A stretch of 64,000 nucleotides of DNA from Sphagnum compactum (lineage: Eukaryota). The stretch is from positions 9,848,213 through 9,912,212 of the forward strand of contig OZ234493.1 of the NCBI GenBank assembly GCA_965153455.1, read 5' to 3'. The number at the start of each line of letters is the position of its first letter. Position 1 is the stretch's first letter. Below, in pieces: positions 2,428 through 52,521 of this stretch. The notes under the pieces are model-generated. The model had not been told where the DNA came from. It saw only the letters and a program-made list of their open reading frames with translations, and searched no databases. The position numbers and the translations under genes were made by a program.

Positions 2428-3569
2428 TGAAGTCATCATCTAGGAGAATGGTTACATGTAAGAATGTACAAACATGAAATTCATTACAAGTTCATTATGT
2501 TTATCTTATTTTGGACATTTAAACCAAAAATCTTCGGCAAGTTAATCCTTGTATATTTTAAGAAGCACTTGAGGCAAAAAGATATTTTTTAATATGCTAT
2601 GAAACAATGACTTATATTCTTAATATATTTAAGATATACTTTAAGTATATTTTCAAAATAAATTATTGGCACCTTACTTACATTTGAGTAAATTATAGTT
2701 TTTATTTTTTTTGAATAAGTTGTAACCTATATATTTTTGTATGCTATTTGTAATAAAATGGAAGTGACCTCCCTGGGCCAAAAAATCAATTTTATTATGA
2801 AATCTTTCACCTTTTATGAATTAAAAAGAAAAATGGGTTACTTTCCATTTGATATTTCATTTAGTTTTGATATTAATTGCCATACATTTCACATATACTA
2901 AGTATGTAGTTGGCAATATAATTCATCAAGATATTATGGACGGAATTAGGATTGAAACTTACATTGATTAATAATCTCATAAAAAAACATTTACATTTTT
3001 CCTATTTTGTGAAATTGTGATGATAATAATGCATGCACATCAATCATGTGTCTTTTGTCATTGTGTGATTTGCCACCCACCATTCCTCCTAGGCTTGTTT
3101 AATCGATGGTCTTAATTTTATGTCATTTAAAGCCTTCTTATAATGTAGTAGTATGTTTTTTCCAAGGAAACCCTAATTGAAATTCTTCATGAAGTTTCTA
3201 TACTATGTATTTAGGCTACAAATGTTGGTTCTCAAATTATTTCCAACACAAACATAAAACATACCCTACACCTAACCTAAAAATGCAATTTCAAAATTGA
3301 ACATAAAATAACTTAATTTGCACCCTAACCTACACTTAAAAGGTGACTTAGATTTAAGTTAAAACCATAATGGGTGGGTCTATGTTAAAATGAGTCATAG
3401 AATGCATAATCATTTTTTAATTTTACATGTTTTAAAATGGTATGTAAAGTTAACATTGAAAATAATTGATTGGTGCATTTATATAATAAATTTTCTAATA
3501 TATTATGAGGAGATATGGATAAATTTCAAATGAATGGTGGCCTAGAGCGTATAAACAAAAACATAAGAT

Positions 3570-3700
3570 AGAGGATAGTGGAATTTCGTGTGTAGAGATA
3601 AAATTCACAGATATACGAAGGAACACCAAAAGCGAAGGCAGTTTTCTGGGTCTTTACTGACGTTGAGGTGCGAAAGCATGGGGAGCAAACAGGATTAGAT
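3570..3700 (+). rRNA. rrn18: Fragment of mitochondrial-type SSU rRNA (NUMT-like, non-functional)
   Basis: gaggatagtggaatttcgtgtgtag...gatatacgaaggaacaccaaaagcgaaggcag...ctgacgttgaggtgcgaaagcatggggagcaaacaggattagat matches the conserved central SSU domain (about E. coli 665-793). ggaatttcgtgtgtag and ccaaaagcgaaggcag resemble green-plant mitochondrial rRNA. The insert may begin near 3440. Confidence 0.9.
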
Positions 3701-3935
3701 AGATCCGGCCGGGCTCTAAATAAAAGACGGCCAAAGGTGTCCTCTCCGATTGCGAGGTCAGAGTGTGTATTCAGCTATTTCGGGGAAACTTTGATGCAGA
3801 TGTACCATTCAATATCAGACAATCCCGAGGGAAGTGCTTTGATGATATTCTATCAAGAGCACCCCGTAGAGACTATATAATGAATATAAAACACATGCAA
3901 TTGTTTTTAAAAATATAATCAATGCTTTCATTGAT
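3701..3935 (+). ncRNA. Group I intron catalytic core in the SSU rRNA fragment (site about S788-S793)
   Basis: P element ttcggggaaac (3779-3789), Q gacaatcccgagggaag (3818-3834), P6 hairpin gtgctttgat/atcaagagcac, R cgtagagacta (3865-3875), P3 tattca (3768)/tgaata (3881), P8 aaaaca/tgtttt, and a degenerate S aaaatataatc (~3910-3920). The downstream exon is not seen. Confidence 0.8.
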
Positions 3936-4399
3936 TAATCAACTTCTTAAAATATTCAAAATGATTTGAAAACGAAATATTTATGAAATTAATAAAACAT
4001 CTTCACATAATAATATTTAATGCAACATTTTCTAAGGTCATATATTTTAAAATATTAGTTTGAAAATCAGGATTTTATGAATATTCCTTTTTAATAGTCA
4101 ATCTAGTGTTATCGGATCATTCTGACCTATTAACGCACTCCTTACAAGCATTACACAAAGGAGTTAGCAGTGAACCTTTTTAACAGAAATTCACCTTAAC
4201 CTTATTGTTAAATTCACGCTCATTTGGAAAGCTTTGCATGAACAACTTCTAACCTTAGAGAATTTAAAAGCTCAAGGTCCTAATAAATATGTCATTTTTT
4301 TTGGGAAAATGCTTTGTGATCAAATAAAGATGTTTTGTTTTTGTGCAAAATGTGAGGTCTCAACAAATGCTTAGGTAGGGAAGGAAAAACTTACATGGA

Positions 4400-5035
4400 T
4401 TGGGCAACTTGCAATTTTTTTTGAAATTATGGGCAATTAATGGCACATTTGGGCAAGCAAGGGGATGAAGGAGATTTGGAAACTTGGCAACATGGAATTG
4501 GAAACTTGGCAATGTGGACTTGGAAACTTGAACTTGGGAACTTCGCCATGTGGATTTGGAAACTTGGCAAGTGGACTTAGCAAACATGGACTTGGAAACT
4601 TGCCATGGTGGATTTGGAAACTTGGCGATGCGGACTTGGAAACTTGGCAAGTTGGCCTTAGCAAACATGAACTTGGAAAGGAAAAATAGCCAAGTACAAT
4701 GCTTTGAGATCCCAATAGGAATGTTTCATTTTTGGGCAATCATGCTAGGTCCCAATAATAGTTCGAGTAAGGAAGGAAAAGAATAAAGGCATTAGGCAGC
4801 TCATAAATTTGTTAAGATTGTGGGCAGTTTGTGGGACATTCAGCCAATTGAGAAGGTGAAATAGACTTGGCAACATGGCAACCTTGATGACATGGCAAGG
4901 TGGAATTGGTGACGTAGCAATGGTGACCTGGCAACTTTTAAAAAAGTGCACGTGGAAAATTGGTGAAGGAAATGTGGATTTGGCAACTTGGCAAAATGGA
5001 CTTGGTGACTAGGCAATGGCAACTTGGCAAAATAA
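4400..5035. repeat. Minisatellite-like arrays of (gga)cttggaaacttggcaa motifs, in two blocks
   Basis: Many imperfect cttgg(a/c)aa units at 4470-4690 and 4860-5030; these produce the repetitive overlapping ORFs on both strands. Confidence 0.8.
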
Positions 5036-5539
5036 CTGAGCATTTGGTAGTCCATACTAGTCATAAAGGGCAGATCCAGAAGCAGTAAAAAGGCTTGTAC
5101 ACTGTACTTTGGATGAGATACAACCTTCAAATACCGTCAAAATGGGTTTGGCCCCGTGTTTATAAGTACTAGATTTGGAGGGTTAGAACTATTGGTTTTG
5201 ATTTTGGGTAGTAAAACTCGAACCCAAACTGGGTATGATTTTTGGAACCAGTTCTAGAACCGAAACTGGAAGAACAGGACCTGGAGCTGATATTTTTTCA
5301 CACACACTTGAGATTTCTCAAAAATCTAAGAACCCAATTCTGATACACAAATATATGCAAACTTTGAAAAATTGAAGAATCAATCAAATAACCTTCTAAT
5401 ACAACCACCAAAATTTTGATGGTTATTTCATGAAAACTGCCAATTCTTGAGGGTTCTGGAAAATCCAAAATTGGAGGTTCATTGATTTCAAATTTGTTTC
5501 AAAAAATCAAAATAACAGATTCTTTCAGTGTGTGTGTGT

Positions 5540-5800
5540 TTTAGGGTGATGTTTTCATTTTTTTCAACCTTAAAAATAGGATTTTGACACATCCAAAAGG
5601 ATTTTTGTGGGAAAAAAAAAAAACCTAATTCATTAAGTTCGATTTCTTTTTTGAAATTGCCAGATTTCTACAACAGGTTCCAGCAGGTAGCCTAAAAAAA
5701 GGGGGGGGTCTAAAAAAATTCTACTTTCATATTTAGTATGTAGCTCAAATTTGGCTAAATCCTCTGGTGGAGGATCACTCGTTTGGCTTACATTACATCC
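5540..5800 (+). repeat. Dispersed repeat family R1 (ends tttggctaaat...ggatgatcaccactt..gctacat)
   Basis: Homologous to 10990-11200(-), 22900-23160(-), 30150-30350, 37870-38145 and 57205-57280. Confidence 0.75.
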
Positions 5801-6307
5801 CGGTGGTATCATAAGGAAAACATGAAAAAGAAAAAACTAATGTGAGGTTTTACATCTGGTTAAAGACCTTGACCAATGGGTTTTACTAGAATGGGGCAGG
5901 TGCGTGCTTGAATATTCTGGTAAAGCCCAGGTCCTCCGGCTTTACCTACCACTTCTCGATCACGTTTATCAAGCTACAAGGCAATCTATTTTTTTTTCTG
6001 TATGTTTGTGTTTTGTTGGGTGTCACAAAGTAGTACATAAGTGGCATGTGGTGTTGGATTTTGAGATATATCTCATTTGGTTAGGGTACACACACGTTGG
6101 TGGACACTAACGTGGTCATATCCTAAACTTTTGTGTATCAAAGGTCATATGCTTAACTTTTATGTCTGCATTTTATAAAAACACTTGGATAGAGAACGCT
6201 TGTGGCTTGACTAGTTCAAAATTGTTCTAGAAGGTAAATTAACTGAATGGCTTTTTGTGATGATTTTTGGCTGGTTAAGCTTAACCTTTTGAAAGGTTTT
6301 AGAGTTT

Positions 6308-6568
6308 ATTGTAGCCTAGGTTCGGTTTCCACATCGAGAAAACGAATAATTATTATTTTTCAAAAGAAATTTCTTTTTTTAATTTTTTAATTATATAATT
6401 TTCCATCATCTCCTATACTATTGTGATAATGAGTAGTGAAATTATTCAGAGTGTAGGCTACTGTAATTATGATTATTTTCAACATGTCAACTTCATATTT
6501 TCACCAATTTTCATTTCATTATAATTTTGAGAATTATATAATGACAAAACTGACCTTAGTGTAAGGTA
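6308..6568. mobile_element. Non-autonomous element, family F3, with subterminal inverted repeats
   Basis: Starts ttgtagcctaggttcggtttcc and ends aaactgaccttagtgtaaggta. Close copy at 45951-46204; partial copy from 63268. Confidence 0.7.
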
Positions 6569-6792
6569 GGCATGTAGACTAGACAATTGTCACATAAATA
6601 GGACTCAAAGCTCATCAACTCTGTAAGGTAATGCCCAAGGCTGCGCACTTTACAATTTAAAAAAATGAAATTCCTGTGATACCCATGATACCTGGCAAGC
6701 TGAGAAGCATTCCATTTTTTGAAACACTGCCCCCAAGCTGCCAAGGGAAAAACTAACTGGGTAAGATGCCCTCCAATTACACTTAAAAAAAC

Positions 6793-7100
6793 ACAAGGGG
6801 TGTGTCACATTGTGGCCTTGCCATTTACATTAAAAAGTATCTTTAGGAAAACAAAGAATTATGGAAACTCAAATATTTCACCATCCAAAAATATAATCTT
6901 CAAAAAATCCTCTATAAGAAACCAAAATCCTTCAAGATATTATAACTCTATATCTAATCTCAAATTTCAACACAAGCCAAATTATCATCTTTCAAAAATC
7001 CTCATATAAAAATAGACCAATTACACCTAGGGGTTAAGCTACTATACTCTATAATGAATCTAAACACAATATCCTTGCCTTGGTAGGCCAGGCCAACAAA
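6793..7100 (-). mobile_element. Helitron2/Helentron-like non-autonomous element, family H1, copy a
   Basis: Four similar ~310-bp copies in the window. Asymmetric IR ggccttgcc/ggcaaggcc, hairpin ccttgcct-tggt-aggcaagg at one end, gtgtg-n-cacac palindrome next to the CTTGT end, no TSD. Confidence 0.7.
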
Positions 7101-7512
7101 GTTCACAAGTAATGTGCAAGAACATGTCTGGAAATCGCTATTACACATTGAACTCTTTTTCCACTCAGCATAACTGAAAAAAACAAATCCCATTCGCCTC
7201 AAAAAAGAAATCTTCACACTTACAAGTCATTACACACAACCCTATTCTGCTGAACATTGAAAAATAATAACCCCTTTCTACCATTTCCATTGGTCTTTTA
7301 AACTTTCTCACAAACCTATCAAACCCTAGTACACATTTAACTATTTGATTCACTCAAGATGAGTAAGAAACATAAATCCAGACCACCCAAAATCCAACAA
7401 TTTCAACAAGCCATAACATTTTTTCTTCACACATATCACAAACCTATTTGACTCTCGCTGTATATTAGGAAACTAAAACTATAACCCTTGTCTGTATCCG
7501 GATAGGGTTAAA
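7097..7512 (-). mobile_element. Helitron2-like non-autonomous element, family H2, copy a
   Basis: Shares its acaaagt..aagtaatgtg.aagaac start and terminal hairpin taacccttgtctgtat...ga(t/c)agggtta with 53514-53934. Confidence 0.6.
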
Positions 7513-8520: not shown

Positions 8521-10989
8521 CATTCGTCATTGCAAGCAACAAGGTGCTTGCAAGATTGTGCTTCCAAGATGCTTGCAAGAGATCACAAATGAAAAAGTAA
8601 AAATAAAATCATTCTTCGGGAGCACATAATACAAGTGGGTAAGACTCCCTAGGAAGTCGTTCCATTTTTGCAATGATGTGAAACAAATATAAGGGGCAAC
8701 TAATTCTTTAGGAAGTAAAACTTATAATTTATTTTAATATAAATAAGGTGTTTAAAATTCATTATGAGAATATATTCAGATTTTTTAAAATTTTAATGAT
8801 TTTTGTTTCAATATTTCATTATTTCATAACAGACTATAAAATACTCAGGTGTTTTGGAAAATAAGATTGACCTCCCTGAGATATATCTTTGTATGGGAGA
8901 CATGAATTGAATGGGAGTAGAGCTCTCGAGGGTTGTGGTTCTCTGACTTTTGAGTCTGGTTACTCTGAAATGGTTAGCAAAATGAGCAAAGATTTGCTGT
9001 TTCCACCACAACTAATATTTGTCCCTCTTGTGTGTCCTTGGTGGATGAGTGTTTGATGTGAATATGGCCATGAGTCCAATGTGAAATGGAAAGCTAGATT
9101 TTCAAAATCTTGTGAAAAGTTGTCCTGGAATGTAAGAACTAAGAACCTTACAGAGGAGCTGGTGCAGAATTTAGTGCAATGCAGAAGTTTTGCAAATGTG
9201 AAATTTTATTTTCATACCCTAAGTGTGTGGTGGAGTTATGACATTTTGATATGGAACATTTGAGATTTCTGGAGAACATTTGCACCATCTTTTTAATCTG
9301 ATAGTTTTTCAAGAAACCAACAGACCACTTATGCCATTGTTGTGAGGGTTGAGTTCAAAAGATGGGACATAATACTTCACTTTGTCTTTGTTCTGCAAGT
9401 TCACCAATTGCACCATTATGAATCAATGACCCAGCTTCCAACTCAGAGAAATATCAAGGGAAACCAAGCAACAGAGTACTGTTGAGCAAAATGAATGCAA
9501 ATTGCAGCCAAGCTTCTGATGGGCATCAAATCATATGTTTTGACTGATGGATTTGAAGGTGTGGGACTTGGAGTTAAAGGGAGATATGAGACTGTGTAAT
9601 AAGTATGCAAACCCAGTCAAGTCAAGTCTAGAGAGGACCCAAGATAGTAGTACCATATGTGTAGATTGGACAGAAAGGATCAGTCCCCTCTGCACATGAG
9701 CTACTAGTTTTTAGGCTGTCCAGCTTGCTTGTCATGTCTACAAAGTGAGAGGGCAGTGGAACAACACATGGCTATGGCTTGGAGGCTACCACAAAAGAAG
9801 CAATGGTTTTCATGTGGCTTTTTCTGCCTCTTTTTTAGTCTCCTTACAAGGCAGATTGGAGGGGTCTACCAGACCTAACTTGGGCAGCTGCCAAGAGCTC
9901 TTATCTAGAGGACCATTATGCAAATCTGCATGAAACCACTCTGCAAATTCACATGAACATTATGCAAATCCACATGAAAACCATTACATAATGGAGGTTG
10001 CTGGGTACAGTCAAATCCTTGCATGCACATCCTTCACTTCCAAATCTAAGTTGAAAACCCCATTATTGCGACCTTGTACCTTAATTTCGACTGTGCTTGT
10101 GACTCAAATTCCATGTACCTCCTTCAAAGGGTTCTTCTCAATATCTTATTATCACACAGATGATATGTAAACTGTGGTGCAAATCCTGGACCATTTAACA
10201 GCTCTATTATTCAATGACGCTTTATGTTTTTCTTTGGAATGTTGTTCCCTCCAGGAGGCATTTACTGAAGCATTTCACAAGCTCAAATTCTTGAAACCAG
10301 TTGTGGATCCTTGGGGATCAGGTCAAATCCTCAATGTTAAATCCTAAACATGAACTCCTAGGCTGCAGTTCTTACAGTTGTGATATCACCCATGGCAGAT
10401 TACAAATCGTTGTAAGCATATCTTGCTCATGAGTCTAGGAGACAATGGAGCTTGCACAAGTGATGACATTGTGTAACTTCACATGTGATTGCTCTGAAGA
10501 GTTTTCCAAGTAAAATAAAATGGGATGATACATGTAGCAAAGCAAAATGTCACACAAACTAGAATTGAATGGGTTATTTATGAGGGTTGAATGACATTTA
10601 GAACAAAACGGAGAAACTCATGTCTTTATCTCCCAATATAAGTATTGATCAGCAAATGCTTGAGATGTTTTTGTTGGTAAGAACAACGCAGCTGCCTTTG
10701 AAGGAAGTTCTCCATGTTTCACTGGTGTGGAACATGCTGTTGAACCCACAACCAAGCCTGGTGATTTCACCTGGAAGGATCATGTAATCAGCTTTCATTG
10801 TTGCTACATTACAAAGCCCATGAACCCCTTCAGTAGAGCAACCACACTTGTTCCAGGATGCACAAAAGTGAATCCTTCAAATGGGTCAAGAAAGCAACAG
10901 CTATACCTCCAGACAAATGTGGTGCTCAGGAAAGATGTCTTGAGGTGAGAGATTGTATTAGTCTGATGATACATTAGGTTACAAGCAGG

Positions 10990-51807: not shown

Positions 51808-52521
51808 TCAAGTGTAAGTCCACTTGGAGATGTCGTACTCTTCTCCACTGGCTTGTGCCACAGCGTAATTGAGAGCTGCACGTAACAATTCAATCCTTTC
51901 CGGAGTATAGACCCTAGGATTGGACAGGGTTACGGTAGGATCGTCCTTCACAGCTTTCATCTTGCATTCCACAGAGCAAAACGAGACTGTGCAGCGATCA
52001 GTGTTTAGGATCTTTGGGCACTTCAGGCACGGGATGAAGGGTCCCAGTGATCTTTCAGGGCTGCTTCCTCGCGGCTGACCTCCACGGCGCGGTGTGCGTC
52101 CTCCGCGCTTGTTGTTCTTTTTCCCAATTTCCTTGGATGCGTTTTGTTTCTTGCCAGCTGCTGCTGCTGCAGCGGGCTCTTGGCTGTATAGAAACATGAT
52201 GAGGGAGTCTTCGCAACCGAATTTGTAGTACGACTGGACCCCGGAAACATCCGCTAGAGCCTGTAAGGCGTTGGCTTCCAGCACAGGTTTGTGGTCGAAT
52301 TGGCGCATGCGAAGGAGTTCATGTGTGAAATGAGCTCGATTCTCCTCGAAGTCCCCTCTAAGAACACACGGCTTTCTGCAATCGATGCAGAACGCATGGC
52401 TGCTCCAGCTGCGACCGCAGTCGCACTTGCCCGCTGCGTTACCGGTGAAGAGGTCCGGCAACCACTCTGGTCCACTTCGGCCTTCCAGTGAACTGGGAAG
52501 AATCATCGTCGAGCTAGACAT
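51808..52521 (-). CDS. Divergent PLATZ-family zinc-dependent DNA-binding protein, 237 aa, single coding exon
   Basis: PEWL..L...C...FCIDC...H..HELLRMR......V.....LQ.L.DVSGVQSY...MFL and C-x2-C...FCS.ECK follow the PLATZ domain layout. Acceptor tgtctag lies just upstream of the ATG; non-coding first-exon donor atcg|gtaag at 53075. Confidence 0.85.
   Translation of the reverse strand: MSSSTMILPSSLEGRSGPEWLPDLFTGNAAGKCDCGRSWSSHAFCIDCRKPCVLRGDFEENRAHFTHELLRMRQFDHKPVLEANALQALADVSGVQSYYKFGCEDSLIMFLYSQEPAAAAAAGKKQNASKEIGKKNNKRGGRTPRRGGQPRGSSPERSLGPFIPCLKCPKILNTDRCTVSFCSVECKMKAVKDDPTVTLSNPRVYTPERIELLRAALNYAVAQASGEEYDISKWTYT

Follow-up and report, generated by a model that had tools for sequence, protein, structure and literature searches.

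Window positions 3532-3876, a stretch of 345 bases delimited with the contigs of four sequencing runs and with BLASTN, are very probably a NUMT, that is, a dead composite fragment of the host's own mitochondrial genome in a nuclear chromosome (the window is the whole 64-kb stretch of Sphagnum compactum DNA that was analyzed). NUMTs are routine in plant genomes. We call the mitochondrion the host's own because the donor form of the sequence and the flanks of the insert both occur in one sequencing run, X1. The initial annotation of this DNA had described mitochondrial-type SSU rRNA carrying a group I intron in nuclear DNA; for the rRNA and for the beginning of the intron, this description is upheld by an Rfam match of 84.3 bits and by the donor contigs presented below.

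Extent and parts of the insert

A search of the whole 64-kb window with Rfam returned a single family above its threshold, SSU_rRNA_bacteria (RF00177), at 3529-3744 on the + strand (84.3 bits against a threshold of 50, E = 2.5e-22, model positions 549-873). The alignment is good from about 3564 to GGATTAGATA (3692-3701) and degrades beyond. We therefore compared window positions 3000-4400 with the contigs, rather than the reads, of four runs (X1, X10, X3 and X14). In each of them, the match of the high-copy contigs to the window ends exactly at 3564 and at 3876; upstream of 3564 these contigs continue into rRNA-like sequence, and downstream of 3876 into further intron. The insert is made up as follows.

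3532-3563, no strand assigned: 32-base piece of high-copy DNA, taken from another part of the donor genome and adjoining the rrn18 piece
3564-3700, + strand: last 137 bases of rrn18 exon 1, matched by RF00177 and ending at GGATTAGAT
3642, + strand: window T against C in all mitochondrial copies; the sole difference from the donor within 3564-3876
3701-3876, + strand: first 176 bases of the rrn18 intron, identical to donor contig L003 and ending exactly where the 5' strand of P7 is complete

The exon part is identical to L003 except at 3642 and differs from another donor contig, L001, at four positions. The C at 3642 is found in all four runs (in X1 it accounts for 269.4 of a depth of 269.4) and in the four donor contigs L001-L004, and T was seen in no contig of these runs or of L001-L004, a result to be read knowing that contigs drop rare variants. 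The roughly 130 nt of SSU rRNA ending at GGATTAGAT that the initial annotation had recognized thus correspond to the 137 bases at 3564-3700. Its wider limits of 3440-3935 hold for the central part (3532-3876), while 3440-3531 and 3877-3935 belong to the nuclear flank: in X1 both are continuous with the low-depth flanks, and they match nothing mitochondrial. The AT-rich expansion that had been read as an upstream feature of the rRNA lies in the first of these two segments and is flank as well.

The 32-base piece has its own source. Separate contigs cover exactly 3532-3563 in X10 (record 8), X14 (record 11) and X3 (record 14); each has one other letter relative to the window and is unlike the window on both sides beyond. 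Their depths are close to that of rrn18 in each run (2.9 vs 4.34 in X10, 7.04 vs 7.87 in X14 and 4.3 vs 4.41 in X3). Since separate contigs cover only 3532-3563, at rrn18-like depths, two donor pieces can be distinguished in the insert. No match to the short piece was found in L001-L004 at up to 5 mismatches. Its assignment to SSU rRNA, as Rfam model positions 549-577, was considered and rejected, as the actual rrn18 differs at those positions. No shared bases were seen at any of the three junctions. When window positions 3000-4400 were searched by BLAST against the 64-kb window, the self-match was the only one, with no second copy or repeat of the insert.

The base composition of the insert stands out from its surroundings, with a GC content of 0.39-0.47 for 3501-3900 against 0.18-0.30 on either side. 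The 313 bases at 3564-3876 contain 13 CpGs, an observed/expected ratio of 0.88; the ratio is 0.30 over the whole window, and the 1000-base flanks of the insert have values of 0.18 on the left and 0.29 on the right. Of four ORFs of at least 130 aa scanned, one had a Pfam hit, a PLATZ-domain ORF of 237 aa at 51808-52521 on the - strand (29 bits, E = 1.6e-06). This ORF and the CpG depletion mark the DNA around the insert as plant nuclear DNA. A tRNA scan of the 64-kb window gave no genes. Imperfect tandem arrays with periods of 22, 36 and 58 and a TTGGAAACTTGGCAA-like unit lie at 4476-4648 and 4975-5016, about 600 bases downstream of the insert, and a further array with a 21-23-base unit is found at 9912-9986.

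The donor mitochondrial DNA and its rrn18 intron

Donor sequences were sought with a 25-base pattern spanning the junction of exon and intron, to be matched exactly, which retrieved four metagenome contigs of 11,090, 41,418, 141,455 (L003) and 110,731 bases. Compared by BLASTN with window positions 3564-3876, L003 matches at 312 of 313 bases, L002 at 311 of 313, and L001 and L004 at 92.0% identity each; the rest of the 64-kb window gave no BLASTN match to the four contigs. Searches with RF00177 identified a complete SSU rRNA in L001 (1188.7 bits, 4694-7369) and in L002 (1130 bits). In these two contigs rrn18 is accompanied by trnP, two trnM, 5S, the start of the LSU and group II intron domains. 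All four of the upstream ORFs scanned match nad4L, sdh4 or sdh3, giving a donor layout of sdh3-sdh4-nad4L / rrn18-5S-rrn26. An excerpt of PMC10304434 puts the mitogenomes of Sphagnopsida 21.2 kb above 118,833, i.e. at about 140 kb, an average that the 141,455 bases of L003 fit. Judged from this size and from their rRNA, tRNA, ORF and group II intron content, L001-L004 are mitochondrial DNA of plant, bryophyte-like type. Together with the habitats of the runs described below, these features suggest a peat moss, Sphagnum or a close relative, as the host.

The rrn18 gene is interrupted directly after GGATTAGAT in all four contigs, by 936 bases in L001 and L004 and by 1174 bases in L002 and L003. 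Intronless rRNAs in X1 and X3 carry the normal CCCTGGTAG after 3701, which marks the insertion site. In all four contigs the exon ends in ...GAT and the intron in ...AATATG before ACCC(T/C)GGTAG, the position of the boundary being ambiguous by one A. The donor contigs thereby follow the group I rule of a 5' exon ending in U and an intron ending in G, of which the window holds only the 5' side. As the rrn18 exons total about 1740 bases, this intron is the only one in the gene. In E. coli numbering the site would correspond to U793/A794, in the 790 loop.

The Intron_gpI family of Rfam (RF00028), which the initial annotation had proposed as a check, gave no match in window positions 3300-4100 at E-values up to 10. 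In the L001 intron the same model gave two matches that are collinear but partial, and far under the gathering threshold of 50 bits: one in the 5' part (5494-5619 against model positions 55-152, 14.2 bits) and one in the 3' part (6068-6252, 16.1 bits), the latter including the S-like GAUAUAGUC. The low score may be explained by the insertion of about 630 bases between the two halves of the intron in L001.

We also drew the helices P2, P2.1, P3, P4, P5, P6 and P7 by hand, in a model where P3 and P7 cross as a pseudoknot. All 42 pairs are standard in the four sequences, which amounts to consistency and not to proof because the helices were drawn from these same sequences. Three changes within helices are one-sided and none is compensatory, the four contigs comprising two sequence types only. 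A clean P1, with U·G at the splice site, did not emerge from the hand drawing, nor did P8 or P9. An alternative P3 of three pairs (alignment columns 53-55 with 194-196), which would show one apparent compensatory change, was rejected for its shortness and because it clashes with a local hairpin.

On these features the donor intron would be the described group I intron rrn18i839g1, its class (g1) being taken from the literature. It is the single insertion in the donor rrn18, lies after a U, ends in G and has P3-P7-type pairings and an S-like motif; the window differs in having only the first 176 of 1174 bases. The insertion site is probably 839 of the published numbering, since rrn18 contains one intron alone. 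According to a passage of PMC13662536, citing Liu et al. 2014, rrn18i839g1 occurs in Sphagnum palustre, Atrichum angustatum, Tetraphis pellucida and Buxbaumia aphylla, which contradicts the statement in the initial annotation that moss mitochondria lack a group I intron in rrn18. Excerpts from two other papers describe rrn18i839g1 as a group I intron in Selaginella (PMC5654404) and as variable among lycophytes (PMC3325193).

The captured part of the intron was mapped onto the hand-drawn helices, a window position being the alignment column plus 3690 and the end of the insert column 186. Window positions 3707-3876 hold P2, P2.1, the 5' strand of P3, P4, P5, P6 and the 5' strand of P7. The 3' strand of P3, which the donor intron has 3-8 bases past the break, is absent from the window. 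The S element with the 3' strand of P7 follows about 630 bases past the break in the 936-base form and about 870 bases past it in the 1174-base form (intron position 1050 in L003). The window accordingly has neither these two strands, nor the large insertion that follows the 3' strand of P3, nor the 3' end of the intron. Of the intron elements reported by the initial annotation, P4 and P6 are present, while its degenerate S and its P3 and P8 pairings were drawn from sequence beyond 3876, which is nuclear flank. The capture amounts to 176 of 1174 bases, or 15% of the longer form. Because the first 176 bases alone were captured, the fragment cannot form a catalytic core and would be inert in the nucleus. 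Folded as a single strand, 3695-3935 did no better than shuffled sequences (z = -1.45; 17 of 200 shuffles fold as well).

The two intron types of the donor contigs differ by 238 bases, most of which come from three blocks of about 59, 21 and 175 columns present in the longer type alone (alignment columns 219-277, 365-385 and 543-717, between the 3' strand of P3 and the S element). No sense-strand ORF of at least 60 aa was found inside the 936-base intron. The two 936-base introns carry a hairpin whose loop is reverse-complemented in one relative to the other, reading ATCAC-TAC-GTGAT in L001 (about 6240-6260) and ATCAC-GTA-GTGAT in L004 (about 2405-2425; alignment columns 1110-1123). Flips of hairpin loops are a common polymorphism of organelles.

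The start of exon 2 also varies. It reads ACCCCGGTAG in the 1174-base type (L002, about 3890-3895, - strand; L003, about 588-593, - strand) and ACCCTGGTAG in L001, in L004 and in the intronless rRNA after 3701 of X1 and X3. The variable base pairs with the A of CAGG in the Rfam consensus structure. The C found at this position may be a C-to-U RNA editing site adjoining the 3' splice site. In Selaginella, according to an excerpt of PMC5654404, editing affects a base at the other end of rrn18i839g1, the one at its 5' splice site.

Copy number and junctions of the insert in sequencing runs

The depth of the X1 contigs separates the insert's flanks from the donor. Three contigs with no other letters than those of the window cover 3000-3593 (record 1), 3847-4243 (record 6) and 4253-4400 (record 7) at depths of 5.7-6.9. 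Two donor-form contigs (records 2 and 5) cover 3564-3671 at a depth of 257 and 3643-3876 at a depth of 243, so that the donor form is about 37 times deeper than the flanks of the window. Record 1 (depth 6.92) spans both the left and the internal junction at flank depth, in a run that may be the window's own assembly data and would then give no independent support for the junctions. Record 6 (depth 5.71) extends over the right junction and has 30 letters inside the insert, where the rule for a bridging contig asks for 31. At the level of X1 contigs, nuclear sequence is therefore found on both sides of the insert, with contigs of flank depth at both outer junctions, the right one falling one letter below the rule.

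These data bear on the possibility of an assembly chimera, in which mitochondrial reads would have been misjoined into a nuclear contig with no insertion in the chromosome. Stray joins are conceivable given the roughly 37-fold excess of mitochondrial over nuclear depth in X1, and the evidence is at contig level, from a run that may have served for the assembly itself. We nevertheless consider a chimera very unlikely. The insert is a composite of two non-adjacent pieces with clean breakpoints, contigs of flank depth lie over its left, internal and right junctions, and rare chimeric reads would not give junction words at that depth. The window also departs from the mitochondrial form at 3642.

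Three further observations were made in X1. Two contigs (records 3 and 4) with depths like those of the nuclear flanks (6.55 and 5.65) contain exon and intron parts of 3564-3867 at about 86-91% identity, one of them with 107 letters in place of 108; they may represent another NUMT of this region, older and decayed, at a different place in the genome, or the rrn18 of another organism. Another contig, with a depth of 9.07 and 25 letters on its shorter side, joins 3433 to 4141 and skips 707 bases including the insert. Depth is raised at 3376-3469 and 4128-4174, near this joint, which could be a member of a repeat family or an empty site.

The stretch was wholly or partly present in 21 of the 24 runs listed, from 12 studies that cover peat, bog, soil and plant metagenomes and eight organisms. 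The share of its sampled words was 0.00 in X21-X23 and 0.14 in X24; neither these low shares nor the lack of junction words in the larger runs of organisms B, C and H counts as evidence for or against the insert. Very small runs, of about 0.67-7 million letters, contained 0.60-0.71 of the sampled words of the stretch. In two tiny runs of 0.67 and 0.76 million letters, with shares of 0.71 and 0.60, 3532-3876 was covered and the flanks had a coverage of 0. A high-copy, organelle-like source is indicated, because such tiny runs cover most of the insert without its flanks.

The initial annotation had proposed, as one of two possibilities, that the fragment was captured horizontally from a foreign mitochondrion, that of an associated organism such as an alga, a fungus or another plant. 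An occurrence in peat, bog, soil and plant metagenomes, each containing many organisms, would suit such a scenario, but we regard it as extremely unlikely. The donor is a plant-type mitogenome of about 141 kb with group II introns and the layout sdh3-sdh4-nad4L / rrn18-5S-rrn26; it is about 37 times deeper than the host flanks in X1 and is found in tiny single-organism runs too; and an excerpt of PMC13662536 reports the intron for Sphagnum. The exon variants that had looked algal are the native rrn18 sequence in all four donor contigs, the T at 3642 excepted. A near-identical match to the host's own mitochondrion, intron included, was the finding that the initial annotation itself had named as refuting its reading, and L003 agrees with the window at 312 of 313 bases across exon and intron, with the donor form abundant in X1. 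The second proposal of the initial annotation, a nuclear fossil of an rrn18 intron since lost from the host mitochondrion, has nothing in its favor beyond the statement there that moss mitochondria lack such an intron, and we give it virtually no chance, as the high-copy genome retains the intron. In X1, X10, X3 and X14, high-depth contigs continue without a break from exon into intron and past 3876, and in L002 and L003 the two exons flank a complete intron of 1174 bases.

Proposed formation and age of the insert

The reading of the insert as a NUMT thus combines near identity to the mitochondrial DNA of the same organism (312 of 313 bases in L003, with donor and flanks both in X1) and flank-depth contigs at its borders. 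We propose that a fragment of the host mitochondrial genome was pasted into the chromosome, most likely when a double-strand break was closed by end-joining. Two non-adjacent donor pieces would have been joined head to tail, one of 32 bases and one of 313 bases over the boundary of exon 1 and the intron. Non-adjacent pieces without shared bases at their junctions are the usual picture of organelle DNA captured in double-strand-break repair.

The insert differs from its donor at one of 313 bases in the rrn18 piece and at one of 32 bases in the short piece. The donor has no CpG at 3642, and its CpGs within the 313-base piece have thus all been preserved in the window. From these few differences, and from CpGs preserved in a CpG-depleted genome, the insertion would appear to be recent. 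The initial annotation had already drawn attention to the CpG contrast with the flanks as a sign of a fairly recent insertion, in agreement with the ratios of 0.88 inside and 0.18 and 0.29 outside.

With two differences in 345 bases and the donor CpGs of the 313-base piece intact, it is conceivable, though on balance doubtful, that the insert is polymorphic, so that some individuals of the host, or some of its sister species, would carry it and others would not. If so, the 3433/4141 joint of X1 could be the empty, pre-insertion form, and the insert would offer a datable, population-level marker of ongoing transfer from mitochondrion to nucleus in peat moss.

The insert shares with other plant NUMTs its near identity to the organism's own mitochondrial DNA, its truncation, its origin from non-adjacent pieces, its nuclear depth and the absence of an expected function. 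It differs in nothing of substance, being short (345 bases) and very young (two differences). This kind of insert is already known, and the donor intron is in print for early-diverging mosses. For the genome of the host, the consequence is that 3532-3876 should be masked as organelle-derived, and that it should be annotated neither as an rRNA gene or group I intron of the nucleus nor as a case of horizontal transfer. For the mitochondria of mosses, the finding corrects the assumption that they have no group I intron in rrn18.
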